Assembly: GCA_964405465.1 (NCBI GenBank)
Contig: CAYONZ010000015.1
Coordinates: forward strand, 3,721-67,720
DNA from: an uncultured Bdellovibrionales bacterium
Lineage (GTDB): Bacteria > Bdellovibrionota > Bdellovibrionia > Bdellovibrionales > JAMPXM01
Length of the DNA stretch: 64,000 bases
Direction: 5' to 3'
Shown here: positions 9,090-54,471 of the stretch, piece by piece
How the letters are laid out: every line of letters begins with the position of its first letter
How positions within the stretch are numbered: the stretch's first letter is position 1
The notes under the pieces: generated by a model
Seen by the model: only the letters and a program-made list of their open reading frames with translations
Told to the model about the DNA's origin: nothing
Databases searched by the model: none
Position numbers and translations under genes: made by a program

Positions 9090-9131
9090 TCTATTTCGCC
9101 ATCTCACGATCCGTTTCAACTTCAAAAAATA

Positions 9132-10241: not shown

Positions 10242-10319
10242 TATTTATCCTCTAGAGTTGACTTCAAAATTGACTTGTAATCTGGTACTTTCACTCTGTC
10301 ACTAAGGAATAAAGCAGTT

Positions 10320-11174: not shown

Positions 11175-11217
11175 AGAAAAACATGCTTAGTGATACAAAA
11201 ATAAATAGGACTTATTT

Positions 11218-11979: not shown

Positions 11980-12063
11980 AGCTGCGAAATAGCTTTGAAA
12001 CAAATGTGAAATGGGCATTTATAAATTGTTTGTGCGACATCACGGCTCGAGTGAAGCCAAAAA

Positions 12064-24649: not shown

Positions 24650-24663
24650 AGGCCGGCAAATTG

Positions 24664-24688
24664 GAGGGGACGGAGCCCCTCTTTTTTT
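24664..24688 (+). terminator. rho-independent terminator built from a GGGGACGGAG copy
   Basis: GAGGGG-acggag-CCCCTC stem-loop followed by TTTTTTT. The motif copy at 24666-24675 supplies one arm and the loop. Confidence 0.75.
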
Positions 24689-24828
24689 ATCTTTTATCCC
24701 AAAACCATAAATGCAAGTGATTGATTTTACTTTTGATTATTAAATTGCATACAATTTAATTGAAAACAATTCGTATTCCGTGTATTCTGATCTCACTGCA
24801 TCAGTTTTTGGGCAGCAAAGGAGAACTC

Positions 24829-30232: not shown

Positions 30233-30352
30233 TACCCAAAACGCTAACACACGCCCCATACCGAAGGAATCTTTAGTCAGCCCCACCAAGCACATCGCGT
30301 TACATACACTTTGATTTTCCAACCGACCTCATCTACCATCAGAGGTCGTTGG

Positions 30353-30439
30353 GCCCGGATGGCGGAACTGGTAGACGCGCTAGATTCAGGTTCTAGTCCT
30401 CGCAAGGGGGTGGAGGTTCAAGTCCTCTTTCGGGCACCA
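30353..30439 (+). tRNA. tRNA-Leu (anticodon CAG), encoded CCA
   Basis: Hand-folded cloverleaf. Acceptor GCCCGGA/TTCGGGC, anticodon stem CTAGA/TCTAG with loop TTCAGGT, long variable arm, T-arm GGAGG-TTCAAGT-CCTCT, and 3' ACCA. Confidence 0.9.
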
Positions 30440-32711: not shown

Positions 32712-33596
32712 TTAGGAGGCTCCGTCCCCTTTTATCGCCTCTTCCTGGGGAAGTTTGCGGCCAACAGCCATTAAGGTGCGACCCGATCCCAGGAGAACTG
32801 GATCACTCGAATAATCAAAGAGAAAGTCAGCCCACTTCTTTTTCAATCTCTCAGGTAAACGGTTAAAAATTTCGTCAAAAGCACCGATACATGGATCAGT
32901 TACATGTAGTGCTTCGAGTTCGAGATCCGCCACGTTGTGCAACGACCGGACATCCTCAAAGGAACTAAAATATCCACGAAACATTCCATTCCTGGGATGA
33001 TCCTTTACAAAACCAGATTGCATCATTTCTTTTGCCTGCTCCGGTACACGCTCAAGCCATTCCGGAAATAGTGCCAATTGATACGACATCAATCCCATCC
33101 TAGTTAAAAAAGAACTAAAGATTTTCCCATTTGGAGAGAGCAGCATTTCGATGTCTTTCATCAATTTGTGCCTATCATCACTTTTTACCAGGTGATACAA
33201 TGGGCCCATAACTAAAATTGCATCAAATTTTTCAGGAACCAACGATCTTACCTCCCTGGCGTCCCCCACTACAAAGCTGACTTGCGAACCAAACTCTGAA
33301 ACCCTTCTTCGATTTTCGTCAATTAATTCCTCTGTCAAATCTAGCGCGGTCACCTTGTGTCCGGCCTCAAGCAAATATTGAGTATATCGTCCGGAACCTG
33401 CTCCCAACTCGAGTACATTTTGAGGAGATTTTAAATAAGAATCCAAAACCTTTTTTGTGATCGCAAATTCCAACTGCTGAGTCTGTAACCTCCCACTCTC
33501 TCCGTTTTTTCTGTAATACTGAGCAATATCCGCCAGATCTTCGAACTCCGTCCCCTCATTTTTGACGCTCTTTTTGTCACTGCCTTCATTTTTCAT
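32712..33596 (-). CDS. class I SAM-dependent methyltransferase
   Basis: VLELGAGSGRYT..KVTALDL motifs. Confidence 0.75.
   Translation of the reverse strand: MKNEGSDKKSVKNEGTEFEDLADIAQYYRKNGESGRLQTQQLEFAITKKVLDSYLKSPQNVLELGAGSGRYTQYLLEAGHKVTALDLTEELIDENRRRVSEFGSQVSFVVGDAREVRSLVPEKFDAILVMGPLYHLVKSDDRHKLMKDIEMLLSPNGKIFSSFLTRMGLMSYQLALFPEWLERVPEQAKEMMQSGFVKDHPRNGMFRGYFSSFEDVRSLHNVADLELEALHVTDPCIGAFDEIFNRLPERLKKKWADFLFDYSSDPVLLGSGRTLMAVGRKLPQEEAIKGDGAS
32720..32729 (-). repeat. GGGGACGGAG motif copy (exact)
   Basis: Covers the last codons of the methyltransferase (K-G-D-G-A-S-stop). Confidence 0.9.
33546..33555 (-). repeat. GGGGACGGAG motif copy (exact)
   Basis: At the methyltransferase N-terminus (N-E-G-T-E-F). 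Confidence 0.9.
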
Positions 33597-34824
33597 CGCA
33601 ACATGCTCTCCTACCCTCTATGCCGTCGACCTTTTCAATCAATCGAAAAACTACCAATGCTCCAGCCGAAACTATCGCAGCCATTGTATAGGCCGCCCCA
33701 GGGAAAAACATCACAGAACGTGACCCTGCAAAATGCGCAAATAAATTTGAATACAACAAAGGAGCAATTATCGCTGTCAAACTCGCAATTGAATTCAGTG
33801 TTCCCTGCAACTTCCCCTGTTGCTTCGTCTGAACTTTTCGCGCAATCAATGACTGAATAGACGGCCCTGCCAGACCTGATACACATGTCGCTGTCACTAT
33901 CGCATACATCATCCACCCCTTGGTCGCCAACGCGAAGCCCAAGAATCCCAGACAATTTATCAATATTGAAATCTTCAGGGCACGTACCTCTCCAATTTTT
34001 GGAACCAACAATCCCGTCAAAATTCCCTGCGAAATCGACATTACCAAACCTACATATGCCAAAGAAAAACCAACCTCTCTCGCCCCCCAACCAAACTTCG
34101 ATTGAGTATAAAGGGTCCAATTGCTAGGATGAACCTGCCCTGCCAAAAACATCAAAAAATAAATCAACAACAAACCAGAAATATTTTGCATCACAAAAAT
34201 CGATTTCAGCGCTGAAAAAGGATTCACCTTTTTAAAGGCCAGTGAATTGCGTTTTTCCATTGGAAGTGACTCAGGAAGAACAAAAAATCCCCAAACAAAA
34301 TTCAAGAAATTCATCAAAGCAGCCGCAATAAACGGATAGGTGTACCCATAGCTTCCCAAAGCACCACCAATTGAGGGACCAATGATAAATCCCAATCCAA
34401 ATCCAACGCCAATAAAACCGAAATTTTTCGTTCGATTTTTATCATCTGAAATATCAGCAATATATGAACTAGCCACCGTCATCCCAGCTCCTGTGAGTCC
34501 AGATAACACTCTTCCAAAAAACAGCAGAGGCAGGCTAGGTGCAAATCCCATAAACAAATAATCCAAACTTGCTCCCAATAAGGAGACCAACAGTACAGGC
34601 CTTCGACCAAATCGATCCGAAATCGCCCCAAGCACAGGAGATGCAAGAAACTGCATCAATGCATACACCGCCACAAAGTATCCAAAATACCTCGTTACAA
34701 AATCCTCACTATTCCCGAATCTTCGAATTGCCTCCGGTAGAACCGGAATAACAATGCCCACTCCAATCCACTCTAATAAAACCGTCACAAAAACAAATTG
34801 TATAGTTGCTCTCGAACTCTTCAT
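33586..34824 (-). CDS. MFS transporter (DHA1 / TetA-like)
   Basis: 12-TM pattern with motif A GAISDRFGRRPVLL. Confidence 0.85.
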   Translation of the reverse strand: MKSSRATIQFVFVTVLLEWIGVGIVIPVLPEAIRRFGNSEDFVTRYFGYFVAVYALMQFLASPVLGAISDRFGRRPVLLVSLLGASLDYLFMGFAPSLPLLFFGRVLSGLTGAGMTVASSYIADISDDKNRTKNFGFIGVGFGLGFIIGPSIGGALGSYGYTYPFIAAALMNFLNFVWGFFVLPESLPMEKRNSLAFKKVNPFSALKSIFVMQNISGLLLIYFLMFLAGQVHPSNWTLYTQSKFGWGAREVGFSLAYVGLVMSISQGILTGLLVPKIGEVRALKISILINCLGFLGFALATKGWMMYAIVTATCVSGLAGPSIQSLIARKVQTKQQGKLQGTLNSIASLTAIIAPLLYSNLFAHFAGSRSVMFFPGAAYTMAAIVSAGALVVFRLIEKVDGIEGRRACCDEK

Positions 34825-35179
34825 TTAAAACGCACCCGCTCTTCCCTTATTATTTCGATGGCCAGCACCACACACCAAGATCCCAAATACAATTAAATCA
34901 TCACTATGTCGGATATAGGAAACCGAATAATTCCTTGGATTCCTGTGTACCAAATCCCAAAAGGTCCGATTTGGATGCCCCAGGTTACTACCAGAACTGC
35001 CACTCGAAATGCGAAAGGTACATCCCGATCTTGAATTCTAATCGACTTGTCAATGACTAGGTTTTTCCCAAAAAACCCAGCCAGAATCTTGAAAAGAATA
35101 TACCTACGCTGTTAGCATCAGACGATTATTTCTGCATGAAAGTTTTAAAGTCGAGTACTTTCCAAACCCACAAAGCATT

Positions 35180-35208
35180 CTCATTCATAACGAAACCGTG
35201 TGAATGAG
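35180..35208 (+). repeat. 8-bp hairpin (CTCATTCA-N13-TGAATGAG) just upstream of the RAYT gene
   Basis: Read directly. A motif copy at 35220 follows 11 nt later. Confidence 0.5.
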
Positions 35209-36049
35209 TAATTGGGGCCGGGGACGGAGACTTGAGCAGAAAATAAATACGGTCGCAATTCGGATGATTCAGACGACCAACTTGTCTTTAATCAGATTTC
35301 AACGTTGTCCCCGAATTGCACGATTCGACCACATGAGAATATCGAGGACACAACAACTTCACCCTTTTTCCGCTAGCACACATATGTACTGGAAATGCCA
35401 CAATCACGAATACTATCTCCAAAAGAACTCAATAAAAGATCTTTACATAAAATGCATAAATGAATCACTAAATCGAAAAAGCTCATATCACTCTAAAATC
35501 ACCATTTCCTCCTTCTGCGTAATGAGTAACCATTTTCACCAAATCGCTTCATATAGAAATTCATCTATTCACCTTTCCAATCACATGCGATACAGCCAGG
35601 GGTTATTTGGCGCTCGTTACAATCGCATGAATAGTCGAGCTGGAAAGGTTTCGATCGGACGACCAAAGACTCCGCTTATTCAAAATAGCACCCATGAGAT
35701 GAAAGTTCATTTATACATCGAAGCAAATCCAATTAGAGCAGGCATATGTAAAATACAGGATCTTAAATATTTCAAACATTGCTCATTTAGATTCTATGCC
35801 TTTGGAATTGAAGATCAAATCACAAAAATTCTGACGATACCTCAATGGTACCTAGACTTAGGAAGAACTTCTTTGGAAAGACAGAAAAAATATAGGGAAC
35901 TTTTTTTGGCAGCTCTCAAGTCTTACGCATTTTCCCCGGCAAAATACCTAAGGTTTCAATTGCCGTTTATTGGTTCACAAAAATGGATAAAATCTCAGCA
36001 TTGCCGTCTAGCAAAAATAAAAAAGTTAAATTCGCTCAACGACTCCTAG
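35204..36049 (+). CDS. REP-associated tyrosine transposase (RAYT) / IS200-like Y1 HUH transposase
   Basis: HUH motif in VMSNHFHQIA and the catalytic-Tyr helix HLYIEANPIRAGICK. The spacing and the LFGARYNRMNSRAGKV segment fit the Y1_Tnp (COG1943) family. There is no tnpB partner. The start is uncertain (35204, 35264 or 35333). Confidence 0.75.
   Translation: MSNWGRGRRLEQKINTVAIRMIQTTNLSLIRFQRCPRIARFDHMRISRTQQLHPFSASTHMYWKCHNHEYYLQKNSIKDLYIKCINESLNRKSSYHSKITISSFCVMSNHFHQIASYRNSSIHLSNHMRYSQGLFGARYNRMNSRAGKVSIGRPKTPLIQNSTHEMKVHLYIEANPIRAGICKIQDLKYFKHCSFRFYAFGIEDQITKILTIPQWYLDLGRTSLERQKKYRELFLAALKSYAFSPAKYLRFQLPFIGSQKWIKSQHCRLAKIKKLNSLNDS
35220..35229 (+). repeat. GGGGACGGAG motif copy (exact) at the 5' edge of the RAYT ORF
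   Basis: Context GGGGCCGGGGACGGAGAC. It lies upstream of the internal Met codons at 35264 and 35333 that may be the real start. Confidence 0.9.
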
Positions 36050-36052
36050 ATT

Positions 36053-36700
36053 CTATTTACCTTTATCGATAATTCGCCCCTCATACATATAAAACACATC
36101 TCCGCCAAATACTTCGACATCTCCTGGGTCATGTGTAATCAGCATTGTTGGAATTTTATTTCTCTCAATCAGTGATTTTATCAATGATCTGGCCTCTGCT
36201 TTATTTTCAGCATCCAACGCTGAAAATGGCTCGTCCAACAGCAATATCCTTGGCTGTCTAGCAATCGCTCTTGCTATTGCGACTCGCTGTTTTTCACCTC
36301 CAGACAATTCTCCACCCTTTCGATCGGCACATCCACTCAAACGCAATTGATCTATTAAACTCTGAACACGGAGGCTCCGTCCCTTTTTGTCGCCTCCGAC
36401 TAAAGTCAGGGGAAATTCTATATTTTCTCTGACTGTCATATGTGGAAATATTTCTAAACTCTGAAAAACTACACCAATATTTCTTTCCAAATGACTAATT
36501 TTTAAAAGGTCCGTCCCCTTCCATTCCCAAGTCCATTCTTGCTGTGGTATTTCCAAACCAATTAGAGAACGAAAAAGAGTTGTCTTGCCGGATCCCGAAG
36601 GTCCCAGCAAACAAGTAGCTCCAATATCTGACAAAAACAATTCGGGTACATTCAAACAGAAACTACCCAACCTAACCTTAAGGTTTCTTATAACCGACAT
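36053..36700 (-). CDS. thiQ: thiamine-type ABC transporter ATP-binding protein
   Basis: Walker A GPSGSGKTT, signature LSGGEKQRV and Walker B LLLDEPFSALD. Last gene of the thiB-thiP-thiQ arrangement. Confidence 0.7.
   Translation of the reverse strand: MSVIRNLKVRLGSFCLNVPELFLSDIGATCLLGPSGSGKTTLFRSLIGLEIPQQEWTWEWKGTDLLKISHLERNIGVVFQSLEIFPHMTVRENIEFPLTLVGGDKKGRSLRVQSLIDQLRLSGCADRKGGELSGGEKQRVAIARAIARQPRILLLDEPFSALDAENKAEARSLIKSLIERNKIPTMLITHDPGDVEVFGGDVFYMYEGRIIDKGK
36375..36384 (-). repeat. GGGGACGGAG motif, 9/10 copy
   Basis: CTCCGTCCCt on the + strand. In thiQ (K-G-R-S-L). Confidence 0.6.
36509..36518 (-). repeat. GGGGACGGAG motif, 9/10 copy
   Basis: gTCCGTCCCC on the + strand. In thiQ (K-G-T-D-L). 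Confidence 0.6.
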
Positions 36701-38141
36701 TTCCCATCCCTTTGAACAAAAAGAACGTGACTAACCCCCCACATACTAGAACCCATACCTCAGCAGTTGCCACCGACAGTCGATAGCTTTCCATCAAACC
36801 TGCCACTTGAAGCGATAATGTTAGTGGCTTCGCAAGTACCATCTTTGACAAGGAAATATCCCCCCAGGCCCAAAAACTTGCAAATGCAGCTATCCCACAG
36901 CAACGACTCCAGGCTTGCGGCAATACAATTCTTGTAAGAATTGTTAGGGGCCCTCCCCCCATCGTGCGCACTAACTGAACCTGTGAATTTATTTGGCCTA
37001 AAAAAGAATCCAAATAAAATCGATAGAGAAACGGAAAAAAAAGTACGCTTAGACCTATAATTAGACTGAATTTGCCAGTTAGATTGAAGCTGATCATTGC
37101 AAAGCCAACTACAACCATACTAGGTGCCAAGTGCCCTAAAAGAACTTTTCGAACTGCTCCGGTTGGGAATACGTAAAGTATCAATATGCAAAGCCCCAAG
37201 GAGGCTAGTCCAACTCCCATTCCTATAAAAATCGATCCAATGAGTCCATCGAGGATTCCGTCGAGTATGGCTGGGTTGCTCAAAATTAATTGAACTCCGT
37301 CCCCAAAACCAACGCTTAGGCCAACGAATAGACAACTCACTGGCAGAAGTACCGGAACCAAACCAAGTGGACTTGAAAGAAGACTCAGACCCATGCCTTT
37401 GGGACGTCCCTCTATCTGAAAATGAACACGTCTTTGCGTAAGCATCAAAGAAAGTCCAAGAACCAATACGCTCTGTATGAAAGAATACGACGCAGCCAGC
37501 CCCCAATTTTGGTCCACCCGAAGTTTTTCATAAATCAATACTTCAAGCGTTGTCGCCCCCCTTCCCCCGAGAATCAAAGGGATTGAGAAGCTAGTCAAAC
37601 ATATCGCAAATATCGACAATCCAATTATCCTCACGTCCTTCTCAATGTTGCCATACACAACCCTTCGAAAAAACGTCCACTTCCCTGCTCCCATCACCTC
37701 AGCCACTGCGGAATACCTAGCAACTACCGAAACTAGCAAATCCTCCAGGGCAACAGCCACTATTCCGACGTTTATCAGAGAATGGACAACCACTATGGAT
37801 GCCAGCGGAGCAATATTTCTTGGTGCCAAATTCAAATAGGCCAAAATCAATAGAAGCGATGGAAAAACATTAGGAACTATCGACAGAAATCGAGCTGCTG
37901 ATACCAAACCAGACGAGTAATGTCGACTCAGATAAATCAACCCATAAGCACCCAATAAACCGAAAGTCATCGTAACGAATGCGCTTAAAAACGATTGGGC
38001 CAACGTAAAACCCAACGCTCTCCAAAAATCCTGGCCAACTAAAAAACTGCTTACATCGAAGTGAAGGCCTAAAACTAAATAAGGAAAAATCAGAAATGTG
38101 AGGAGTATCAGCAGAATAAATACTCGAAAGGGATCCCTCAT
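36678..38141 (-). CDS. thiP: thiamine-type ABC transporter permease (duplicated domain)
   Basis: 487-aa two-module permease between the ThiB-like binding protein and the ATPase. Confidence 0.7.
   Translation of the reverse strand: MRDPFRVFILLILLTFLIFPYLVLGLHFDVSSFLVGQDFWRALGFTLAQSFLSAFVTMTFGLLGAYGLIYLSRHYSSGLVSAARFLSIVPNVFPSLLLILAYLNLAPRNIAPLASIVVVHSLINVGIVAVALEDLLVSVVARYSAVAEVMGAGKWTFFRRVVYGNIEKDVRIIGLSIFAICLTSFSIPLILGGRGATTLEVLIYEKLRVDQNWGLAASYSFIQSVLVLGLSLMLTQRRVHFQIEGRPKGMGLSLLSSPLGLVPVLLPVSCLFVGLSVGFGDGVQLILSNPAILDGILDGLIGSIFIGMGVGLASLGLCILILYVFPTGAVRKVLLGHLAPSMVVVGFAMISFNLTGKFSLIIGLSVLFFPFLYRFYLDSFLGQINSQVQLVRTMGGGPLTILTRIVLPQAWSRCCGIAAFASFWAWGDISLSKMVLAKPLTLSLQVAGLMESYRLSVATAEVWVLVCGGLVTFFLFKGMGNVGYKKP
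37295..37304 (-). repeat. GGGGACGGAG motif copy (exact)
   Basis: In thiP (F-G-D-G-V-Q). Confidence 0.9.
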
Positions 38142-38168
38142 CGTTTTAACTCTAGTTGGAATTTTTGC

Positions 38169-39182
38169 TCAAAACCCATCAATCCGTTTCCATATCTCCA
38201 ACATCTCATGTTTTCGATCGCCCAACCTAAGGTTAATTGAACCTTCAATTAATTTGAGCTCTGGAATTTTGTCGAACTCCGTCCCCTTTTTAACAGAATC
38301 TACAACAGGCAGCATATAGTTCTTCTTCATGATTATAGACTGAGACTCTGGTTCTAGTAGGAAACTCAAAAACAACAGTGCAGCTTCTTTCTGTAAACTG
38401 CCCGCAGGAACCCCCGCAAACTCAACCTGAATTGGATGGCCCTCTTTGAATACTGAAGCCCGATACTCGGACTTCCCTTCCTCAATCAAATGATACAACG
38501 GTGAGGTTAAATACGACATCACCAATTTTGCATGCCCAGATTGAAATAAGCCGTAGGCCTGGGACCAAGAACTCGAAATGCTTTGAATATTTGGAGCCAA
38601 TTGGGTTAAAAAACCACGAGCTCCGTCCCCCTTTTCACCCATTGGAAAGCCTTTTTGAGCAAAAACCCAGAAGAGAAACTGTTGTCCCGGTGAACTAATC
38701 CTGGGGTCCTGCAAAGCAATCTGACCCCTAAATCGAGAACTCAATAAATCATCCATCGACTCCGGTGGAACAATTTCTTTATCCCGATAAATAAAAGCCA
38801 TCGGAGCCCAATCAAATGCGTAAAACTCATCACGGGCAAATCGTGCAGTTGTTCCCTGAAGCCTCTCCCACTTAAACTGTTTCGCGGCTTCTTCCACCGA
38901 AAACTGATCCAAACCCACCACCACATCAGCTTTCCGAATCTTTAGCCTTTCCAAGAGCAGTGCTCCGTCCCCACCATCCTGAAAACTAACGGCGATTTGG
39001 TATTTCTCCTCAAATCGCTTTGCCAACTCCGGACCCGGCCCCCATGAATTCATAAATGACCCATAGGTCAGGACCTCGATCGATTTCCCCACAGAGCTCC
39101 GTCCCCGTGCCATGTTCCAATAGATCGCAATGCCCACCAAAATCGACACCATTGTAACCAACAGAATTACAACCCTCTTCAT
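38169..39182 (-). CDS. thiB: thiamine ABC transporter substrate-binding protein
   Basis: VLTYGSFMNSWGPGP, QDPRISSPG, SWSQAYGLF and SYLTSPLYHLIEE match ThiB/TbpA as I recall it. Confidence 0.8.
   Translation of the reverse strand: MKRVVILLVTMVSILVGIAIYWNMARGRSSVGKSIEVLTYGSFMNSWGPGPELAKRFEEKYQIAVSFQDGGDGALLLERLKIRKADVVVGLDQFSVEEAAKQFKWERLQGTTARFARDEFYAFDWAPMAFIYRDKEIVPPESMDDLLSSRFRGQIALQDPRISSPGQQFLFWVFAQKGFPMGEKGDGARGFLTQLAPNIQSISSSWSQAYGLFQSGHAKLVMSYLTSPLYHLIEEGKSEYRASVFKEGHPIQVEFAGVPAGSLQKEAALLFLSFLLEPESQSIIMKKNYMLPVVDSVKKGTEFDKIPELKLIEGSINLRLGDRKHEMLEIWKRIDGF
38277..38286 (-). repeat. GGGGACGGAG motif copy (exact)
   Basis: In thiB (K-G-T-E-F). Confidence 0.9.
38621..38630 (-). repeat. GGGGACGGAG motif copy (exact)
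   Basis: In thiB (K-G-D-G-A). Part of the 13-mer GAGCTCCGTCCCC. Confidence 0.9.
38963..38972 (-). repeat. GGGGACGGAG motif copy (exact)
   Basis: In thiB (G-G-D-G-A-L). Confidence 0.9.
39097..39106 (-). repeat. GGGGACGGAG motif copy (exact)
   Basis: In thiB (R-G-R-S-S). Part of the 13-mer GAGCTCCGTCCCC. Confidence 0.9.
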
Positions 39183-39186
39183 TCAA

Positions 39187-39666
39187 CTACCACCAAATGC
39201 CTCGATGGCGTTTATAAAAGTAATAATCTAGCCCAAGACACCGACCTGCCCCCATCCATCCCAAAGTAAGGTGGACCATCAAAACAAAAGTTGTTTGTAA
39301 ATCCGTTGTAGTCTGAACCATCAATAACAAAACACACGCCAGCATTCCCAACATCGCAAACGGACGCACCAAATACCCAAGAATATACGCCAAGCCCATG
39401 ACGATTTGAAAAATCACAAAGATATGTGCAAATACCTGCCAGTTCGGTATCACAACATTCTCCAAGAAAAATCGCATAGCTTCGGGGACAGCCGATTGCG
39501 GTAAAAAATTTCTAATATCCTCTGCTAAATAGGCATGCTCCAAATATCCACTTTTAAGATGCGAAATACCCAAGTTAAAATAATAGTAGCCTAAAAAAAT
39601 ACGCAGAAATGAAATCGGTAAAAAATGCCCAACGTATTTGATGCTCTCAACGAATGCAATAATCAT
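39187..39666 (-). CDS. small integral membrane protein (DoxX-like, tentative)
   Basis: Four hydrophobic helices. AAGGAGA lies about 10 nt before the ATG at 39666. The family call is a guess. Confidence 0.4.
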   Translation of the reverse strand: MIIAFVESIKYVGHFLPISFLRIFLGYYYFNLGISHLKSGYLEHAYLAEDIRNFLPQSAVPEAMRFFLENVVIPNWQVFAHIFVIFQIVMGLAYILGYLVRPFAMLGMLACVLLLMVQTTTDLQTTFVLMVHLTLGWMGAGRCLGLDYYFYKRHRGIWW

Positions 39667-39709
39667 AAAACTCATTCTCCTTGAGGGAACTACCCTGGTC
39701 AACTCTGCC

Positions 39710-40447
39710 TCAGAGTTTTTTCATACACAATTCATTTAGAAAACAAGAGCCACACTGAGGGCTTCGTGCCTTACATACCTTTCTTCCATGCCAGATCAAT
39801 TGATGGGAAAACGCAATCCACTTTTCCTGCGGCAACAACTCCATGATTTCCCTTTCGATTTTTACTGGATCATCTTCCTTAGTGAGTCCCATCCTCTGAC
39901 ACAGTCTCCTGACATGAGTATCCACCACTACTCCAGAGGGAATTCCAAATGCCACACCTAAAACTACATTCGCTGTCTTTCTACCCACACCGGCCAACTC
40001 AACCAGCTTGTCTAAACTTTTGGGAATCTCACCGTCATATTTCTCAACCAAAGTCTGGCAGCATCGCTGAATATTTTTAGCCTTGTTCTTATAAAAACCA
40101 GTCGATCGAATAATTTCTTCCAGATTTTTTAACGGAGCCCTGCTCAATGAAAATGCATCCGGGTACTCCTCAAACAAAATTGGAGTCACCATATTAACAC
40201 GCTCATCCGTACACTGCGCCGACAAAATTGTCGCCACCAAAAGCTCCAGCGTACTCCTGTGGTTTAATGCACACTCCGCTTCCGGATAATATTTTTCTAA
40301 CAAGGCCACAGCTTTCGCGATCCGATTCGTCTTTTCTCCTACAGATTCACCTCTAGAAAATGAGGTCGCTCGCTCACCCGGCTTAGTGCTCTTGCCCGAC
40401 AGCTTGTGGTTCTTTTTTGAATTCTGAAGTTTTCTCTTTTTCTTCAT
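39710..40447 (-). CDS. nth: endonuclease III with a basic N-terminal extension
   Basis: HhH (LVELAGVGRKTANVVL) and the 4Fe-4S cluster loop CKARSPQCGSCFLNELC. Confidence 0.9.
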   Translation of the reverse strand: MKKKRKLQNSKKNHKLSGKSTKPGERATSFSRGESVGEKTNRIAKAVALLEKYYPEAECALNHRSTLELLVATILSAQCTDERVNMVTPILFEEYPDAFSLSRAPLKNLEEIIRSTGFYKNKAKNIQRCCQTLVEKYDGEIPKSLDKLVELAGVGRKTANVVLGVAFGIPSGVVVDTHVRRLCQRMGLTKEDDPVKIEREIMELLPQEKWIAFSHQLIWHGRKVCKARSPQCGSCFLNELCMKKL

Positions 40448-41695: not shown

Positions 41696-42609
41696 AGAGT
41701 GAATCCTCCGCAAACTTCCGACCTGGTAAAACCATCTCTAGGCAAACCAATCTGACTCGAGCTCCGTCCCCTGCAAAAATGGTCGGAGAGATGGTCGAAT
41801 GGGTCGGACTGCGGATAACTCTATTGTCAGCACTTCTGCTCTGTGCGTGCGTAAAACACGAACAACCCAAACAAGACTTTGGACCAGAATCTGACCCGCA
41901 GGAAATCCTCAACACAATCAAAAAAGTTAGATCTTCAAGCAATCCATTTTCGATGAAAGTCGGCGAATTTGTCCACCTTGAGGAGAACCAGACCGTGGCC
42001 AACACTGTTCACTCCATCACTGCCGACACCGGAATTACTGTGACCAATCGTGAAGAAAACGATGTCGCCGTCCGATATTCGTTCACCCAACGGCGATTCA
42101 CATACTATGAGCAAAAGCCCCGAGAGGTCGCTACAGAACTTCCTCCCCTTGTCCTAAAAAAGCCGCAGAAGTCTTCCTCCAGTATCGCAGACATGATTTT
42201 CTCTTTTGGTATTTCAGTAACTCCGTCCCCGAACCCCTTGGCTCCGTCCCCTTTGTCGGGACCCCAGACCCACCTCACTATGAGCGCGTCCGAGCCCTCT
42301 CAAGTAACCTTTCACAATTTTAAATTTTCTGAACAAACCGAACCAGCCCCTGACCTGGTCGCCCAACGCCCAGACTGCCTCAATATCGAAGGTTGTAAGT
42401 ACAAGGTCTCGCGCATTTCATTCGATGAAGTCGCTTGGATCAACAACCAACCCGAACTCACACAATACTCCTATGCATTCAGCGACCGCGTTCCCTACAT
42501 CGCCAGTCAACTCGAAAACTGTGCCACTCGCATGGTCGAACTCTCCAGTGGCAGCAAAGCTCCCGTTAAGTTCTGTAGTGTTGTTCGAGACTTCAAGTCA
42601 GGCAACTGA
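41692..42609 (+). CDS. putative lipoprotein
   Basis: ATGA start/stop overlap with the upstream gene. Lipobox-like LLSALLLCAC. No family recognised. Confidence 0.5.
   Translation: MKSESSANFRPGKTISRQTNLTRAPSPAKMVGEMVEWVGLRITLLSALLLCACVKHEQPKQDFGPESDPQEILNTIKKVRSSSNPFSMKVGEFVHLEENQTVANTVHSITADTGITVTNREENDVAVRYSFTQRRFTYYEQKPREVATELPPLVLKKPQKSSSSIADMIFSFGISVTPSPNPLAPSPLSGPQTHLTMSASEPSQVTFHNFKFSEQTEPAPDLVAQRPDCLNIEGCKYKVSRISFDEVAWINNQPELTQYSYAFSDRVPYIASQLENCATRMVELSSGSKAPVKFCSVVRDFKSGN
41762..41771 (-). repeat. GGGGACGGAG motif copy (exact)
   Basis: C-rich strand in the sense of the lipoprotein gene (A-P-S-P). Part of the 13-mer GAGCTCCGTCCCC. Confidence 0.9.
42221..42230 (-). repeat. GGGGACGGAG motif copy (exact)
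   Basis: In the lipoprotein gene (T-P-S-P). Direct repeat with the copy 21 bp downstream. Confidence 0.9.
42242..42251 (-). repeat. GGGGACGGAG motif copy (exact)
   Basis: In the lipoprotein gene (A-P-S-P). Confidence 0.9.
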
Positions 42610-46171: not shown

Positions 46172-46195
46172 CTCCAAATTTGGAGCTCCGTCCCC
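46172..46195. repeat. 14-bp palindrome CTCCAAATTTGGAG abutting an exact motif copy (CTCCGTCCCC at 46186-46195)
   Basis: Read directly. Intergenic. Confidence 0.9.
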
Positions 46196-48665: not shown

Positions 48666-49847
48666 ATGGCGAGAATCTTCAATAGAAAATTCTATTTCGA
48701 GCTAATCTTAAGCGTCCTAATAGGTACACTTTTACCCAAAGTTTCACTGGCAAGAGCAGAATCGATTTCTATCAAGGCAGACCAAGTTGTGTCGCACGTT
48801 AATCGTGTTTGGTATGGACGAATTCATAAAATTCTAGAATTCAGAGTTTTTGATCTCCGACATTGCTCTACATCCTTTCGGCAAATGACTCTCCAGCGTT
48901 TCAATCAAATGAGTCTCGATTCCTCAGACTCGATCGCTCTGACACAGCTTCTTGAGTTCTACCAACATACTCACTCTCCACAAATTGAGATGAACTGCCA
49001 AATGCAACTCGATAAGAACGAAAATCTTTTTTGGAAACATGAGACAAGGGCCTTTAAAATTCCTAAATTAATTTTTCCTATGTCAACAGTACTTCAAGAG
49101 CTCAATCCACATTGCATCTCAAGGCAAGTGCCATCACTCAATGGCAAATATGACTCTAATCCGTGTTTGGCCGCAGACGAAATGATTGGTCGCGGACTTA
49201 TGACCGACCTCGAACTGTGGCATTCCCAAATGTCACAAATCAACACTGAACTTCGAGTTCGATTTTCCGAAAGGACAGACAAAAATCCCTCTATAGATCT
49301 CTATGCGGTATTTCTATCGGCCACTTCCACAAGAGATACGCCTGAAAATCGGGAGCGAGCGATCGCGATGGTGGCAGGGGCACTGGCCTCGGCTCCAAGT
49401 TGGTCGGCCTACTTTGACGGAATCACCGATGTAGTTTGGAGAGACCAAATGAAGGACAGTAGGTATTCATTGTCCCCCCGCGAAATCCAAAAACTCGTGG
49501 AATTCATCCCTGCGCTTCGTTTACAGATCGACGAACTCAGCCAACTTTTCAAGTGGGGACGGAGCAATGTCGAAGGAATGAATTGGCAGGGGATCGACCT
49601 CTCGGATAGCAATCACCACAACATGATGTCCGCATATTTAGCATGCCATTACCGAGAGCGGACGGCACTGACCCATGAATTTCTTCCTAAGCTAATGGGA
49701 CAGATCTACGAAGCAAAAGACTTTGCCTCACACCTTCTTGTCGACAAAGACAGTTGGCCGATTGCCGTCCAAAATTTTACGACAGACACAAATCGCTACT
49801 CCGCTGGCGCCGAATGGGGCTACCGCTTTTGTAAAATGAGGCTTTAG
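48666..49847 (+). CDS. hypothetical secreted protein
   Basis: 393-aa ORF with a signal-peptide-like N-terminus. No family recognised. Confidence 0.45.
   Translation: MARIFNRKFYFELILSVLIGTLLPKVSLARAESISIKADQVVSHVNRVWYGRIHKILEFRVFDLRHCSTSFRQMTLQRFNQMSLDSSDSIALTQLLEFYQHTHSPQIEMNCQMQLDKNENLFWKHETRAFKIPKLIFPMSTVLQELNPHCISRQVPSLNGKYDSNPCLAADEMIGRGLMTDLELWHSQMSQINTELRVRFSERTDKNPSIDLYAVFLSATSTRDTPENRERAIAMVAGALASAPSWSAYFDGITDVVWRDQMKDSRYSLSPREIQKLVEFIPALRLQIDELSQLFKWGRSNVEGMNWQGIDLSDSNHHNMMSAYLACHYRERTALTHEFLPKLMGQIYEAKDFASHLLVDKDSWPIAVQNFTTDTNRYSAGAEWGYRFCKMRL
49555..49564 (+). repeat. GGGGACGGAG motif copy (exact)
   Basis: In the hypothetical gene (K-W-G-R-S-N). Confidence 0.9.
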
Positions 49848-49903
49848 CGGCAACGCCCAAATACTCCAAATTTGTTTGGGCCAACTCGGCTCGATACGAC
49901 CGA

Positions 49904-49940
49904 GGCTCCGTCCCCCGGTCTTTGATTAGGGGACGGAGCC
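49904..49940. repeat. perfect 12-bp inverted repeat GGCTCCGTCCCC-N13-GGGGACGGAGCC (motif doublet)
   Basis: Read directly. Intergenic, between the hypothetical gene and menB. No T-run follows it. Confidence 0.95.
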
Positions 49941-50132
49941 CAGTGATTGCGGGCACAAGAGATCTAAGCCGTGGACCGGGCGCGCGAGGCGTTAGATGGA
50001 ACTGTCCGGGATTCCGGCTACATTTTTTTTTGTAATTCTGCTAAACCCTCAGGCACACTAAGTCGCACCATTTTTCTAATCACCTGCAGGAGGATTCGCG
50101 TGGGCACATCAAAATCAGAAGTTTGGATAAAA

Positions 50133-50933
50133 ATGAAAGACTACACCGACATCAAGCTTGAAAAAACAGCCGATGGCGTGGCCAAGGTAACCATAAATCG
50201 ACCCGAAGTTCGCAATGCATTTCGCCCACTCACGGTGCAGGAACTTCAAGATGCATTTAATATTTGCCGAGATGACGGCTCAGTTGGCGTTGTGATTCTC
50301 ACCGGAGCTGGTGATTTAGCTTTTTGTTCAGGTGGAGACCAACGAGTTCGTGGCACTGGCGGCTATGTCGGTGGGGACGGAGTCCCTCGGTTAAACGTAC
50401 TTGATCTTCAAAAACAAATTCGCAGCATCCCAAAACCCGTGATTGCCATGGTTGCCGGATACGCAGTTGGCGGAGGACACGTACTCCACGTCGTCTGTGA
50501 TCTTTCAATTGCCGCCGACAACGCTCGCTTCGGACAAACCGGACCAAAAGTTGGATCATTCGATGGCGGTCTCGGCAGCAGTTATCTCGCCAGAATTGTG
50601 GGCCAAAAGAAAGCTCGTGAAATTTGGTACCTCTGCCGTCAATACGACGCCCAACAGGCTCTCGACATGGGACTCGTCAATGCCGTTGTTCCTCTGGCAG
50701 AGCTTGAAACCGAAACTCTCAAATGGTGCCGCGAAATTCTCGAACACTCACCGCTTGCGCTTCGCTGCTTAAAGGCCTCACTCAACGCAGATTGCGATGG
50801 GCAAATGGGTCTTCTCGATTTGGCCGGTAACGCCACACTTTTGTATTATCTCTCAGAAGAAGCAAAAGAAGGAAAACAGGCCTATTTGGAAAAGCGTCAG
50901 CCTGATTTTTCTAAGTTTCCACGATTACCATAA
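50133..50933 (+). CDS. menB: 1,4-dihydroxy-2-naphthoyl-CoA synthase
   Basis: Near-full-length similarity to MenB ([41 protein letters not shown]). The track ORF from 49971 is an unsupported N-terminal extension. Confidence 0.92.
50373..50382 (+). repeat. GGGGACGGAG motif copy (exact)
   Basis: In a variable loop of menB (V-G-G-D-G-V-P). Confidence 0.9.
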
Positions 50934-50939
50934 TTTTAA

Positions 50940-51950
50940 GTGGAAGATATCGTGACAGAAACTCAAAGTTCCCTTCGCGCATCACCACCAGTTCACTCGG
51001 GCCCAACAGGAAATGCTGTTGGCCCCTGGCTTTTGGCTTTAAGGCCAAAGACTCTCACTGCAGCATTGGTTCCCGTGGTGGTTGCCTCCGCACTTTGCTA
51101 CTCAAACTGGAAAACCACCTGTGGCATTGACAGTGCCAATTCTTCGATTCTCTCTCTAAACCATCCGTGCGTTCCATTTGCCTGGTGGATTTCGATCTTT
51201 GCTCTACTCAGCTCGGTATTTATTCAAATCGGCACTAATCTGGTAAACGATGCCCTTGACTTCAAAAAAGGCGCCGACACCGAATCACGCATTGGACCCA
51301 AGAGAGTTACCCAAACCGGTCTTCTCACTGATAAACAGGTTTTATTTGGTGCCATGATCTGCTTTTTATTGGCAACGCTTTTCGGAGTTCCCCTCGTATT
51401 AACCGGTGGATGGCCGATTGCCTTAGTGGGACTCATTTCTATCGCATGTGCTTACGGTTACACTGGAGGCCCATTTCCACTCGCCTACCGTGGCCTCGGT
51501 GACTTGTTTGTGATTATTTTTTTTGGTTGGGTTGCGGTTTTAGGTATGCAGTTTCTATTTATGAAATCAATCAACATTGATGGATTCATCGTTGGAACAC
51601 AGATCGGCTTTCTCGCAACGGTTTTAATTGCAATCAATAATTTGCGCGACCGAGATCAAGATGTTCATGTAAACAAAAAGACATTAGCCGTGCGCTTCGG
51701 AAAAAATTTCGCAAGAACCGAAATTGCAGTTCTTGCCTTTGCGCCTTTTATTCTGGGTGCATATTGGATAATGACCCATCGGGTGCTCATGGGCACAGTC
51801 CCGTTCATCGCGATTCCCCTAGCTATAAAAGTGGTAAACGGAATTTTCTCTAACGAACCCAGCTCGCTCTATAATCAGTTTCTCGGCAAAGCTGCCGGCC
51901 TACATCTGCTCTTCGGGATAGGCCTAGCAATCGCGGCGGTATTTTCGTGA
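50940..51950 (+). CDS. menA: 1,4-dihydroxy-2-naphthoate polyprenyltransferase
   Basis: UbiA-family Asp-rich motifs NDALDFKKGAD and NNLRDRDQD, multiple TM helices, men-operon context. Confidence 0.85.
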   Translation: MEDIVTETQSSLRASPPVHSGPTGNAVGPWLLALRPKTLTAALVPVVVASALCYSNWKTTCGIDSANSSILSLNHPCVPFAWWISIFALLSSVFIQIGTNLVNDALDFKKGADTESRIGPKRVTQTGLLTDKQVLFGAMICFLLATLFGVPLVLTGGWPIALVGLISIACAYGYTGGPFPLAYRGLGDLFVIIFFGWVAVLGMQFLFMKSINIDGFIVGTQIGFLATVLIAINNLRDRDQDVHVNKKTLAVRFGKNFARTEIAVLAFAPFILGAYWIMTHRVLMGTVPFIAIPLAIKVVNGIFSNEPSSLYNQFLGKAAGLHLLFGIGLAIAAVFS

Positions 51951-53056
51951 ACATCTCGGACCACCCAAGTCGTAACGTAGCGATTTGGAGCGCACCCTAC
52001 ATATTAGAGCGCCGCAATTCCTCTGGTTCAGATGATGTTCGCTACGGCACACTTTTGAAATTCAATTTTCCTGATGGCGTGGGCTATGCAGATCTTCACC
52101 CCTGGCCAGAACTCGGGGACCTCGACTTAAAAACTCAACTCGAGGCTCTCGCTTCAGGAAAACTTCAAACACAACAACTGAAAAACAGCTTTCTTTTTGC
52201 AACAATTGACGCAAAAAATCGTTCGCAAAATCTCAATGCGTTTGCTGGAGCAACGGTGCCTCAAAGTCACTTTCTTTTGGCAAATACAAATCATCTTCAC
52301 CTTACAACCCTTATGCTCATCACTGAAGACTCGTTTCGAGCAATAAAAATCAAGGTCGGAAGAAATCTCGAACAGGAGATGAAGTGTTTTAAAAAGATCT
52401 CAGAGGAATGGCCCGAAGATTTGGCAATTCGACTAGACTTCAACGCAATAGCGCCTCTGAACGATGTCTGTGCTTTTTTTAAAAGTCTTCCAAAAAATAT
52501 TCGAGATAAAATTGAATTTGTCGAGGATCCAATTTCCTTGCGTGGATTACGTCCTGACCAACAAAGTGATTTAATGCAATTACTAGATCGTGAAGTTGGG
52601 CACACCATCACCTGGGCCCAAGACTTCGAACCCATCATTGGAAACTCTAGCCATGCTAAAGTGCAAATTTTGAAGCCTGCCGTCGATATAGTAACAATGC
52701 AAGTGGCATCAACAAATGAAACTCAGATTCTAACAAATTTATCCAAACATGACATCGTCGTATCGAGCTATCTCGATCATCCGCTCGCACAAACACAAGC
52801 CGCTTATATAGCCACTCGCCTCATGCAACTCGCCCCCGAAAAAATTCGAACTTGTGGCTTACTATCACACACGATTTACCAACCGTCAGAATTTTCTGAG
52901 GAGCTCGTCGCGAAGGGTCCCTACTTTCAAATCCCTTCCGGAGTGGGCTTCGGATTCGATTTACCTCTTGCTCGACAAAATTGGAAACTGCTCTCTGCAG
53001 TTTCCTGCTCCGACTTGTCTCAACAAGTTGGGAACCATGATGGTTTGGTGCAATGA
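51947..53056 (+). CDS. menC: o-succinylbenzoate synthase (enolase superfamily), divergent
   Basis: KIKVGRN, RLDFNA and FVEDP metal-ligand contexts. GTGA overlap with menA and ATGA overlap with menE. Confidence 0.65.
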   Translation: MNISDHPSRNVAIWSAPYILERRNSSGSDDVRYGTLLKFNFPDGVGYADLHPWPELGDLDLKTQLEALASGKLQTQQLKNSFLFATIDAKNRSQNLNAFAGATVPQSHFLLANTNHLHLTTLMLITEDSFRAIKIKVGRNLEQEMKCFKKISEEWPEDLAIRLDFNAIAPLNDVCAFFKSLPKNIRDKIEFVEDPISLRGLRPDQQSDLMQLLDREVGHTITWAQDFEPIIGNSSHAKVQILKPAVDIVTMQVASTNETQILTNLSKHDIVVSSYLDHPLAQTQAAYIATRLMQLAPEKIRTCGLLSHTIYQPSEFSEELVAKGPYFQIPSGVGFGFDLPLARQNWKLLSAVSCSDLSQQVGNHDGLVQ

Positions 53057-54471
53057 TGCCACAATTAAAACATTTCTCTGACCAACTTTCCAAAACCTGC
53101 GATTTCTATACAACCGATGGGAATGTCGAATGGCTAGGCAAATCCACCCATGTGATTCTGAATTCGCGTATGCCCTCGGAGACAAAAGAGCAAATCATTC
53201 GTACACTAAATAAAAACTGTTTTAGTGGAAATGGCAAAGATCATTGTCTTCCCGAAGAAAGCGTAGTGCTGCAAACTTCCGGATCTACCACTCCGATTAC
53301 GCCACTTGGAAAATCAGCTCAAACAAAACTTGTTGTACTTTCGAAGTCTGCATTTTTAGCATCTGCAGCTGCCGTCAATAAACACTTTTCTATTTCAGCA
53401 GAAGATCGATGGCTACAAGTGCTCCCACGATTTCATGTTGGTGGACTGGCAATTTATGCACGTGCATTTCTATCTAAATCTCCTGTGGTTGAGTCCTCAC
53501 TTATTGAAAACAAATGGGACGTTCACACCTTTTTGCGGGAGCTCACTCAAGCGAAAGCAACCCTGGTCTCACTTGTACCGACTCAGATATTTGACCTTTG
53601 TTCGCATGATCTTTCTCCGCCTGAAGATCTAAGAGCAGTGATTGTAGGTGGATCCAAACTAAGTGCATCTCTCTATCGAAGAGCCCGGCAACTAGGGTGG
53701 CCCATTTACCCTAGCTTCGGGGCGACTGAGCTCTGTTCACAAATCGCGACTGCACCCTATTCAATGACTTTCGATCCCACGAGTTGTGAATGGACCGGGA
53801 GGAGTGTCGCCCCTTTAGTGTCTGCGGACCGAGCTTTGCTAGATTTTAAATTTCCAGATCTTGAACTCTTGCCACATATTGAATGTCAAGTCGAAGCCAC
53901 AGGTCGGCTTCTATTTCGTGGACCTTCTTTGTTCTCAGGATACATTTTTGTGAGCAGTTCTCCCGAGTGGGGTGAATCAATGAATGCAGATGGCTGGTTT
54001 GCCTCAGAAGACTTTGGAAGCCTCAATGAAAAGACTCTTCGTATAAACGGACGAGGTGCTGACTATCTCAAAATAGGTGGTGAAGCTGTATCTTTGATCG
54101 AGCTGAATGAAATATTTGAGATCGCACGCGACAGAACACGTTTTGTTTATGACTGCTCACTATTGAGTCTTGCCGATGATCGCCTAGGAGAAAAAATTGT
54201 TTTGGCGGTGGCCTGTCCCATGGAATATTGGCCTACAGAACAGCAAGATGAAAATGACACTAAACCCACTGACCTCAGAAAAACTGCCCAAGCTTCTATC
54301 GAAAATTTAGTCGCCTGTTACAATTCAAATGTTTTACCTGTGGCAAAAATTCGTGAGGTCATTTGCATTAATAAAATTCCACGCTCGCCGCTCGGAAAAG
54401 TTTTGCGCGAAGAGCTTAAGACTTTGTGTTCAAAGAATAGCTCAAAGAGTGGTTCGCGAAAATTGTATTGA
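53053..54471 (+). CDS. menE: o-succinylbenzoate--CoA ligase, divergent
   Basis: Degenerate AMP-binding motif (LQTSGSTT) and size. The call rests mainly on operon position after menB, menA and menC. Confidence 0.65.
   Translation: MMPQLKHFSDQLSKTCDFYTTDGNVEWLGKSTHVILNSRMPSETKEQIIRTLNKNCFSGNGKDHCLPEESVVLQTSGSTTPITPLGKSAQTKLVVLSKSAFLASAAAVNKHFSISAEDRWLQVLPRFHVGGLAIYARAFLSKSPVVESSLIENKWDVHTFLRELTQAKATLVSLVPTQIFDLCSHDLSPPEDLRAVIVGGSKLSASLYRRARQLGWPIYPSFGATELCSQIATAPYSMTFDPTSCEWTGRSVAPLVSADRALLDFKFPDLELLPHIECQVEATGRLLFRGPSLFSGYIFVSSSPEWGESMNADGWFASEDFGSLNEKTLRINGRGADYLKIGGEAVSLIELNEIFEIARDRTRFVYDCSLLSLADDRLGEKIVLAVACPMEYWPTEQQDENDTKPTDLRKTAQASIENLVACYNSNVLPVAKIREVICINKIPRSPLGKVLREELKTLCSKNSSKSGSRKLY

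Follow-up and report, generated by a model that had tools for sequence, protein, structure and literature searches.

A hairpin-forming word doublet upstream of menB, a candidate REP-type palindrome in a word-rich segment of an uncultured Bdellovibrionales genome that also carries a predicted RAYT-family gene

The hairpin described here is located at positions 49904–49940 of a 64,000-nucleotide (nt) stretch of contig CAYONZ010000015.1 (positions 3,721 to 67,720 of the forward strand), which is part of assembly GCA_964405465.1 of an uncultured Bdellovibrionales bacterium (GTDB JAMPXM01). This whole stretch is referred to as the window. Read directly from the sequence, the hairpin is an inverted repeat of 12 bp without mismatches, GGCTCCGTCCCC-cggtctttgatta-GGGGACGGAGCC, the arms of which are separated by 13 nt, and it is situated between an open reading frame (ORF) at 48666–49847 and menB. 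Its arms are copies of a short G-rich word that is repeated in the window, and the segment in which most copies are found also contains a predicted gene for a REP-associated tyrosine transposase (RAYT; REP, repetitive extragenic palindrome; REPIN, REP doublet forming a hairpin). The features on which the argument is built are the following.

49904 to 49940, no strand assigned: inverted word doublet with arms at 49904–49915 (GGCTCCGTCCCC) and 49929–49940 (GGGGACGGAGCC) and a 13-nt loop, a candidate REP/REPIN-type palindrome
29169 to 50382, no strand assigned: word-rich segment with 27 of the 30 exact copies of TCCGTCCCC, 1.3 per kb, across about 20 ordinary genes from RNase R to menB
35333 to 36049, + strand: predicted RAYT-family (REP-associated) Y1 HUH tyrosine transposase gene, 238 amino acids (aa), 38% GC
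35220 to 35229, − strand: word copy, read as GGGGACGGAG on the + strand, 104 nt upstream of the predicted RAYT start codon
29750 to 29787, no strand assigned: inverted word doublet GGGGGACTCCGTCCCC-AAAGCA-GGGGACGGAGTCCCC with a 16-bp stem, a 6-nt loop and a folding energy of −38.4 kcal/mol

The hairpin begins 56 nt 3' of the TAG stop codon (49845–49847) of the 48666–49847 ORF, that is, just past this gene, where a first-pass annotation made from the sequence alone had placed it. From its end there are 159 nt to GTG 50100, the menB start chosen by the gene callers (277 aa), and 192 nt to the in-frame ATG 50133; a distance of about 190 bp to the menB start had been given in that annotation. The perfect 12-bp stem that it had reported was borne out by the sequence and by the predicted RNA fold, of which the energies were −31.0 kcal/mol for the + strand and −33.3 kcal/mol for the − strand, compared to about −17 ± 3 kcal/mol for shuffled sequences (z = −4.9 and −5.1, respectively; none of 200 shuffles folded equally well). 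A search of Rfam at gathering thresholds identified tRNA-Leu only, and 49840–50150 had no match even at E ≤ 10. Between the hairpin and menB (GTG 50100), a block of ~125 nt at 49975–50099 was almost identical in a relative with 78% identity, which exceeded the conservation of the coding sequences. A 1-nt indel in the relative indicates that this block is noncoding and that the longer menB ORF starting at 49971 is not conserved. The block contains a CCGG-GATT-CCGG mini-hairpin, a run of nine T and a GGAGGA ribosome-binding site, had no Rfam match at E ≤ 10, and could represent a conserved promoter or leader sequence for the menBACE operon. Because the hairpin lies 56 nt past a stop codon and upstream of this block, it would, once transcribed, probably serve as a 3' stem-loop, i.e., a terminator or RNA stabilizer, a role that is read from its position.

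The word of the arms is the most over-represented k-mer of the window. TCCGTCCCC was found in 30 exact copies, while 0.29 copies were expected (an excess of ~100-fold) and no more than 2 were observed in any of 100 shuffled sequences; the 10-mer CTCCGTCCCC had 27 copies. An alignment of the copies yielded the consensus GRGCTCCGTCCCC, i.e., G-R-G-CTCCGTCCCC, in which the 10 nt of the core are strict and end sharply at the 3' side, and the G-R-G positions at the 5' side are weaker. Perfect copies were far more common than variants of the 10-mer with one mismatch, of which only six were identified. The 30 copies were split 19 to 11 between the two strands, and approximately 23 of them were inside ORFs, those of housekeeping genes, where they occurred in all three frames and in both orientations. 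The word is therefore a signal at the level of DNA, and a peptide motif as its origin is ruled out. A literature search for the word itself returned unrelated primers only.

The distribution of the word was examined over 67 kb, comprising the window and 3.3 kb past its right end. In addition to the 27 exact copies, the segment 29169–50382 holds all six one-mismatch variants of the CTCTCCGTCCCC-core 10-mer, three of which retain the exact 9-mer. The three remaining exact copies are in the first 29 kb and are all extragenic, and no copies were found in 50.4–64 kb or in the 3.3 kb beyond the right end. None of 5000 simulations was as extreme in the clustering of copies. The genes in the segment include those for RNase R, endonuclease III, an ABC transporter, Ddl, NadE and MenB, and those outside it include flagellin genes, menFDH, aro genes, opp and menACE, with housekeeping genes on both sides of each boundary. 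Not a single intragenic copy was identified in the coding sequence of the 46 kb flanking the segment, the aro, men, opp and flagellin genes included. Among the peptide sites that could carry the word synonymously, 21 of 22 were occupied inside the segment vs. none of 6 outside (Fisher P = 2e-5). Five intragenic copies were checked (four in NadE and one in MenB) and were found to occupy positions of equal length in homologs, two of those in NadE being on invariant peptides (LAGDGV and AELRP); these five copies thus originated in substitutions rather than in insertions. No match to a Pfam or NCBIfam family was obtained for the hypothetical proteins of 393 and 313 aa.

The orientation of the copies also varied along the segment. 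To the left of 44 kb, 14 of 17 copies were on the + strand, and to the right 7 of 10 were on the − strand (Fisher P = 0.013; P = 0.06 after correction for the choice of breakpoint), which renders the polarity switch near 44 kb suggestive only. A replication origin, terminus or dif site behind the polarity was rejected, as neither a sign change of GC skew nor an excess of DnaA boxes was found. At 33000–40000, which overlaps the left part of the word-rich segment, the GC skew was unusually strong (−0.2 to −0.31) and the dinucleotide signature differed from that of the rest (delta* of 65–85 × 10^-3; CC/GG up and GC down). The somewhat differing signature of 30–42 kb is largely due to the strong GC skew. 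The menaquinone genes are in two clusters ~40 kb apart, menH-menD-menF with ubiE/menG and menB-A-C-E (6634–11979 and 49971–54471, respectively), and the word-rich segment is between these clusters, ending inside menB.

In the middle of the word-rich segment, 14 kb upstream of the 49904–49940 hairpin, an ORF at 35204–36049 that had been regarded as hypothetical matches the NCBIfam family NF047646 "REP-associated tyrosine transposase" weakly (E = 3e-8 to 3.8e-8). Its HUH motif is NHFH and its tyrosine motif is YIEANPIRAG (YxxxNP). An exhaustive search identified 2251 homologs, with alignments that start at residue 44 of the long ORF; the gene is therefore assigned to 35333–36049, by which the word copy at 35220 is upstream of it. 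A profile of 40 homologs had E. coli TnpA-REP (PDB 4ER8) as its best match among solved structures (E = 1.4e-7), and 33 of these 40 homologs match Pfam Y1_Tnp. As judged from its sequence, an intact RAYT-family gene is present in the word-rich segment. By our own estimate, which supposes one or few copies per genome, the chance of such a gene falling in a given 21 kb is of the order of 1–2%. At its 3' side, copies of the word are at 36375–36384 (one mismatch; 326 nt) and 36509–36518 (460 nt), both inside an ABC ATPase gene. In viral contigs, which were searched in order to read the flanks of RAYT homologs, no such homolog was found.

The association of the word with RAYTs was also observed in another genome. 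A hidden Markov model of the family, run over all fetched loci, matched the window gene, its 98%-identical copies in two strains (L127 and L128), and one gene in a Prosthecobacter metagenome-assembled genome (MAG; L077), a locus that had been selected for no other reason than its doublet. The Prosthecobacter RAYT scored 87.2 bits, above the NCBI cut-off of 80. It is bracketed by GGGGGACTCTGTCCCCC-N9-GGGGGACAGAGTCCCCC ~30 nt upstream and by GGGGGACTCCGTCCCCC-N12-GGGGGGACGGAGTCCCCC ~10–20 nt downstream. The arms of these hairpins, GGGGGACTC[C/T]GTCCCCC, lie no more than 20–30 nt from the RAYT gene, and over 16 nt they match those of the 29750–29787 hairpin of the window exactly. A RAYT of another phylum is accompanied by the same hairpin. 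Moreover, in Gemmatales-like sequences, GTAGGAGGGGGCTCCGTCCCCC was found singly, in tandem or as head-to-head dimers, which are classical GTAG-tagged REPs with the same core; the dimers GTAGGAGGGGGCTCCGTCCCCC...GGGGGACGGAGCCCCCTCCTAC were in loci L007, L163 and L182. Comparison with these sequences suggests that GTAG REPs have, in the 5' half of their small G-stem, the counterpart of the weak G-R-G positions of the window consensus.

The word was found in additional settings. The same 10-mer core, usually as CCTCCGTCCCC, formed dense intergenic arrays in unrelated phyla (L044:1–8000, a Pseudohongiella MAG; L014; L073, an Acidobacteriota MAG; and L103, Metabacillus), for instance 18 copies in 8 kb with a spacing of 31 nt and 5 copies with a spacing of 22 nt. 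In the 8 kb fetched for each of these array loci, a RAYT gene was not found. A hairpin of the form CTCCGTCCCC-N20-GGGGACGGAG was conserved at one locus across dozens of Collinsella species (L003, L006, L009 and ~60 others). In low-GC Bdellovibrionota, the word was present as isolated intergenic inverted doublets (L074:940–1140, MAG ABC1.69, and L080:3330–3380, a Bacteriovoracaceae MAG); L074 has a third copy 130 nt away, and neither locus has a surrounding cloud of copies. Among the matches listed, the scan of genome contigs for doublets gave mostly the conserved Collinsella locus and high-GC hairpins. The scan of metagenomes gave 51 matches, which were mostly chance high-GC hairpins and included no close relative, and that of viral sequences gave 3.

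The conservation of the word was assessed in Logan contigs from other samples, which represent a sister species with ~77–79% nucleotide identity (L126, L129, L130 and L135) and the strains L127 and L128 with 98% identity. The source lineage is under-sampled, as the named homologs of MenD are all from Bdellovibrio/Bdellovibrionales at 42–48% identity and the best match of NadE is 60% identical. Given that all named MenD homologs belong to Bdellovibrionota, the MenD region is native. In two aligned dense stretches, 10 of 11 copies were intact at orthologous positions of the sister species while the flanks had diverged (P ~9e-11), and no extra copies were found in the aligned stretches of the sister species. 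The only one of the 11 absent from the relative is the first copy of a direct (tandem) doublet at 42221–42251 in the gene for the 313-aa hypothetical protein. The sparse region 8977–12969 was word-free in both species and its divergence was similar to that of the dense region (77.6% vs. 77.3% identity). Thus, the patchiness of the word is old and stable. Recent import or an assembly chimera as its cause is ruled out by the equal divergence and by an independent Logan contig that spans the right boundary at 100% identity. The word was absent from distant NadE neighborhoods (L188 and L189) and from distant homologs of the 393-aa protein (L119–L125).

The hairpin itself is also conserved. In its ortholog in L126, both arms are retained and the loop differs (TCTTTCAGAGA). 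Compensatory changes on both sides of the outer stem extend it to 20–21 bp, a TTTTT tail follows, and the ortholog passes the terminator scan with 20 pairs, a 3-nt loop and TTTTT. The window hairpin is without the T5 tail because of a 23-nt indel relative to L126. The first-pass annotation had stated that no T-run follows the hairpin and that it is hence no canonical terminator, which holds for the window copy but not for this ortholog.

The remaining word features of the window that are referred to below are as follows.

806 to 880, no strand assigned: inverted doublet with arms at 806–817 and 869–880 and a 51-nt spacer, in a divergent intergenic region upstream of a flagellin gene
24663 to 24689, + strand: terminator-like stem-loop after a small ORF, formed by a single word copy, GGAGGGG-ACGGAG-CCCCTCT, and followed by a run of seven T
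46186 to 46195, + strand: single intergenic copy between a divergent PilZ-domain gene and nadE

Doublets with the same order of a C-rich arm followed by a G-rich arm had been indicated at about 808–878 and 29751–29786, and both exist with that order. The first-pass annotation had also reasoned that its claim would fail if doublets were no more common than the density of single copies predicts and no transcripts ended at them. Doublets were more common: two convergent doublets were found in the dense segment vs. 0.22 expected (P = 0.02), and the left 29 kb, where the word is sparse, has a pair among only three copies (P = 0.003). Both cores of the 806–880 doublet are kept in the relative L130, of which the flanks have diverged. 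Given the stem and TTTTT of the L126 ortholog and the stem and T7 run at 24663–24689, a role of the word in 3' stem-loops or terminators is plausible.

At 29740–30322 (− strand), the RNase R ORF has an N-terminal extension of ~200 residues that is basic, rich in Lys, Ser and Arg, and of low complexity. The 29750–29787 hairpin sits in frame in this extension, where its 16-bp stem-loop encodes GTPSPKQGTESP; the true start of RNase R may be an ATG near 29724, in which case the hairpin would be in the 5' untranslated region. A tRNA-Leu gene (30353–30439) adjoins this doublet. The two doublets with short spacers, 29750–29787 and 49904–49940, are 20.1 kb from each other, one at either end of the word-rich segment, with only one copy beyond each. 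Viewed post hoc, the segment between them resembles a bounded unit, though its gene content is that of housekeeping functions. A core site of a tyrosine recombinase, i.e., two arms with a spacer of 6–8 bp, would fit 29750–29787 and was ruled out by the 13-nt and 51-nt spacers of the other doublets. In the 5' region of the flagellin gene, ~145 nt (985–1128) are identical to the relative except for one base, including a sigma-28-like GCCGATCA element, and the sequence further upstream has diverged.

The explanation that we favor, and for which we judge the case to be evenly balanced, is that the hairpin at 49904–49940 is a REP/REPIN-type palindrome, i.e., an inverted doublet of a RAYT-associated word. 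The 10–13-nt word GRG-CTCCGTCCCC would then be one of a family of repeats on which RAYT-type HUH tyrosine transposases act. When the DNA is single-stranded, the doublet would fold into a stem-loop that such enzymes may bind and cut, which would explain how the extragenic doublets arose and why they persist. The RAYT of the window would recognize the word or the hairpin. The first-pass annotation had remarked that REPIN doublets look similar, and this remark is supported by the RAYT gene in the segment and by the same arms around the Prosthecobacter RAYT. It had mentioned neither the RAYT gene nor the intragenic location of most copies and their restriction to 21 kb.

Several results weigh against this explanation. 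The predicted RAYT of the window scores 34 bits against NF047646, below the cut-off of 80, and shares only 23% identity with the Prosthecobacter RAYT. Its gene is flanked by single copies and is not bracketed by doublets, and at 1.3 copies per kb their proximity is not significant on its own. The GTAG tag was sought in the window copies and was absent, there being no information beyond position −4, and CGTC was found only inside the word. Strong hairpins are formed by the three doublets; each of the other 24 copies is a single word, for which there is no more than a weak GGG/CCC self-stem of 3–4 bp, and the intragenic single words are unable to fold stably by themselves. The 49904–49940 hairpin has no T-run at its 3' side and, with its 13-nt loop, was not called in the terminator scan. 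REPs are by definition mostly extragenic palindromes dispersed genome-wide, while most copies in the window are intragenic and those checked arose by substitution. Confinement of the copies to ~6 kb left and 14 kb right of the RAYT gene, together with their intragenic conservation, is unusual for REPs and is not accounted for by the canonical model of transposition.

These last properties could be accommodated if the intragenic single words were selected recognition sites for a RAYT-like protein that acts locally, which we put forward as a speculative working assumption. A domesticated RAYT-type HUH nuclease and its recognition word would then constitute a locally acting chromosomal system, in which selection rather than transposition wrote ~25 copies into a 21-kb neighborhood and afterward held them fixed across species. 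Synonymous codons would spell the word at invariant peptides, and at variable positions amino acids would have been changed to fit it. We regard this extension as tentative and, at present, rather doubtful. It is likewise speculative that the RAYT merely targets a word array that existed before.

Alternatively, the word could be a DNA uptake sequence, similar to the DNA uptake sequences (DUS) of Neisseria or the uptake signal sequences (USS) of Pasteurellaceae, that was spread by biased uptake and recombination, with inverted pairs co-opted as terminators and the RAYT being incidental or having inserted beside the word. The word has the expected form, short with a strict core and one weaker flank, perfect copies far outnumber those with one mismatch, and its local density is 1.3 per kb. 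It is written into genes in all three frames and both orientations, with the checked copies having arisen by substitution at tolerated or invariant peptides. Similar to DUS (PMC2397512), the copies are perfectly conserved amid diverged flanks, and the inverted pairs with 6- and 13-nt spacers are 3' of genes, that of the relative passing the terminator scan. The analogy to Neisseria DUS drawn in the first-pass annotation thus stands with regard to the intragenic copies and their conservation; it does not with regard to distribution, as 46 of the 67 kb, native core genes included, are essentially devoid of the word. Known uptake sequences cover the entire core genome, whereas the coding sequence of the 46 kb of flanking DNA has no copy, synonymously accessible sites are occupied at 0 of 6 positions outside vs. 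21 of 22 inside, and the region that is word-free in both species has diverged equally, so that the pattern is old and not a matter of recent import. No competence genes were found in the window, and we know of no competence link for Bdellovibrionota. Because two thirds of the DNA lacks the word even at synonymous sites, in both species, and because the co-location with a RAYT and the RAYT-flanking hairpins of Prosthecobacter are left unexplained, the uptake-sequence explanation ranks below that of a RAYT-associated word, and we consider it improbable.

A somewhat lower probability still is given to the copies being an array of binding sites for a chromosomal protein unrelated to the RAYT, comparable to parS, matS or ram clusters, KOPS or Ter-like polar sites, which would mark a 21-kb domain and in which the hairpins would be two adjacent sites. 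The sharp regional confinement, the conservation of orthologous intragenic sites as known for parS, the polarity switch at 44 kb (P = 0.013) and the two hairpin doublets near the ends of the array are all in its favor. However, the polarity is at P = 0.06 once the choice of breakpoint is corrected for, the window contains no sign change of GC skew, no cluster of DnaA boxes and no partition gene, and, to our knowledge, there is no chromosomal-site system based on a non-palindromic 10-mer with a density of 1.3 per kb. The RAYT in the array (~1–2% by chance) and the RAYT-flanking hairpins elsewhere are also left unaccounted for. That the hairpin is an ordinary terminator or 3' stabilizer of the upstream gene, whose arms coincide with the word by accident, agrees with its strong stem, its location between a stop codon, 56 nt away, and the conserved leader of menB, and the T5 tail of its ortholog. 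Nevertheless, we find it very improbable, as each arm is an exact match, over 12 nt, to a word with ~100-fold over-representation, the same doublet is found in contexts other than terminators (the divergent promoter region at 806–880 and the inside of an ORF at 29750–29787), and the window hairpin has no T-run. A role as terminator is in itself compatible with the explanation by a RAYT-associated word.

RAYTs are widespread, single-copy, domesticated transposases, and the REPs or REPINs that they act on are viewed as mobile hairpins located outside genes. If the link of the word to the RAYT is real, such words can be kept as sites by selection instead of being propagated as mobile DNA, and the enzyme may prefer to act in the vicinity of the gene that encodes it, which would offer a concrete and testable handle on RAYT function. 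If, in addition, the word and the RAYT form a locally acting system, this would be the first case of REP-like words as intragenic sites maintained by the host and would imply a cellular function of a RAYT in cis, such as processing of single-stranded DNA in replication or repair of the region. A short word that is found in all frames and at conserved positions would not be a signature specific to uptake sequences. REP/RAYT biology would also be extended to a deep, uncultured lineage of Bdellovibrionota.

Compared to known systems, the hairpin is similar to Rho-independent terminators in being a GC-rich stem-loop shortly past a stop codon, with a T5 tail in its ortholog. It differs from them in the lack of a T-run in the window, its 13-nt loop and its arms, which are a repeated word. 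In TIRYT/TIRtron elements, RAYT-like genes are flanked by inverted repeats that share GGGGWSAS, and these form moderately abundant families with dimers or clusters (PMC3733652). Here too, a RAYT-like gene is accompanied by G-rich inverted words, of which GGGGAC fits the first six positions of GGGGWSAS. However, the window word has GG instead of AS at positions 7–8, no long terminal inverted repeats surround the gene, and copies are intragenic. With DUS and USS, the word shares its length of 10–12 nt, its strict core, its local density of ~1 per kb, its presence in all frames of genes through substitution and its conservation in diverged surroundings; DUS copies are also reported to be conserved amid diverged flanks, and inverted DUS pairs in terminators have spacers of 21 nt or less (PMC2397512; bioRxiv 10.1101/2025.10.24.684340), a range into which the 6- and 13-nt spacers of the window fall. 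Different from these, the window word is missing in two thirds of the DNA examined and is associated with a RAYT gene.

Finally, the REP/REPIN-RAYT systems include the REPs and bacterial interspersed mosaic elements (BIMEs) of E. coli with TnpA-REP (4ER8), the REPINs of Pseudomonas fluorescens and the GTAG REPs of the Planctomycetes-Verrucomicrobia-Chlamydiae (PVC) group (PMC3733652, PMC3116915, PMC5581495). Different from those, the copies in the window are mostly single 10–13-mers and not palindromes, about three quarters of them are intragenic, with five checked ones having arisen via substitution, and they are confined to 21 kb and conserved in position at 78% nucleotide identity; moreover, the GTAG tag is lacking and doublets do not bracket the RAYT gene. 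GTAG/CGTC super-families of REPs have been described, and REPs are also known as RNA hairpins 3' of genes or as terminators and are occasionally intragenic (PMC3733652), as are some copies in Opitutus and Rickettsia. RAYTs in turn are single-copy domesticated transposases flanked by abundant repeats (PMC5581495). Similar to these systems, the window has short GC-rich inverted doublets that fold into hairpins, hairpins located 3' of genes that may act as terminators, and a predicted RAYT-family Y1 HUH gene nearby, and the core GGGGG[A/C]TCCGTCCCCC flanks the RAYT of Prosthecobacter and carries GTAG in Gemmatales-like sequences.

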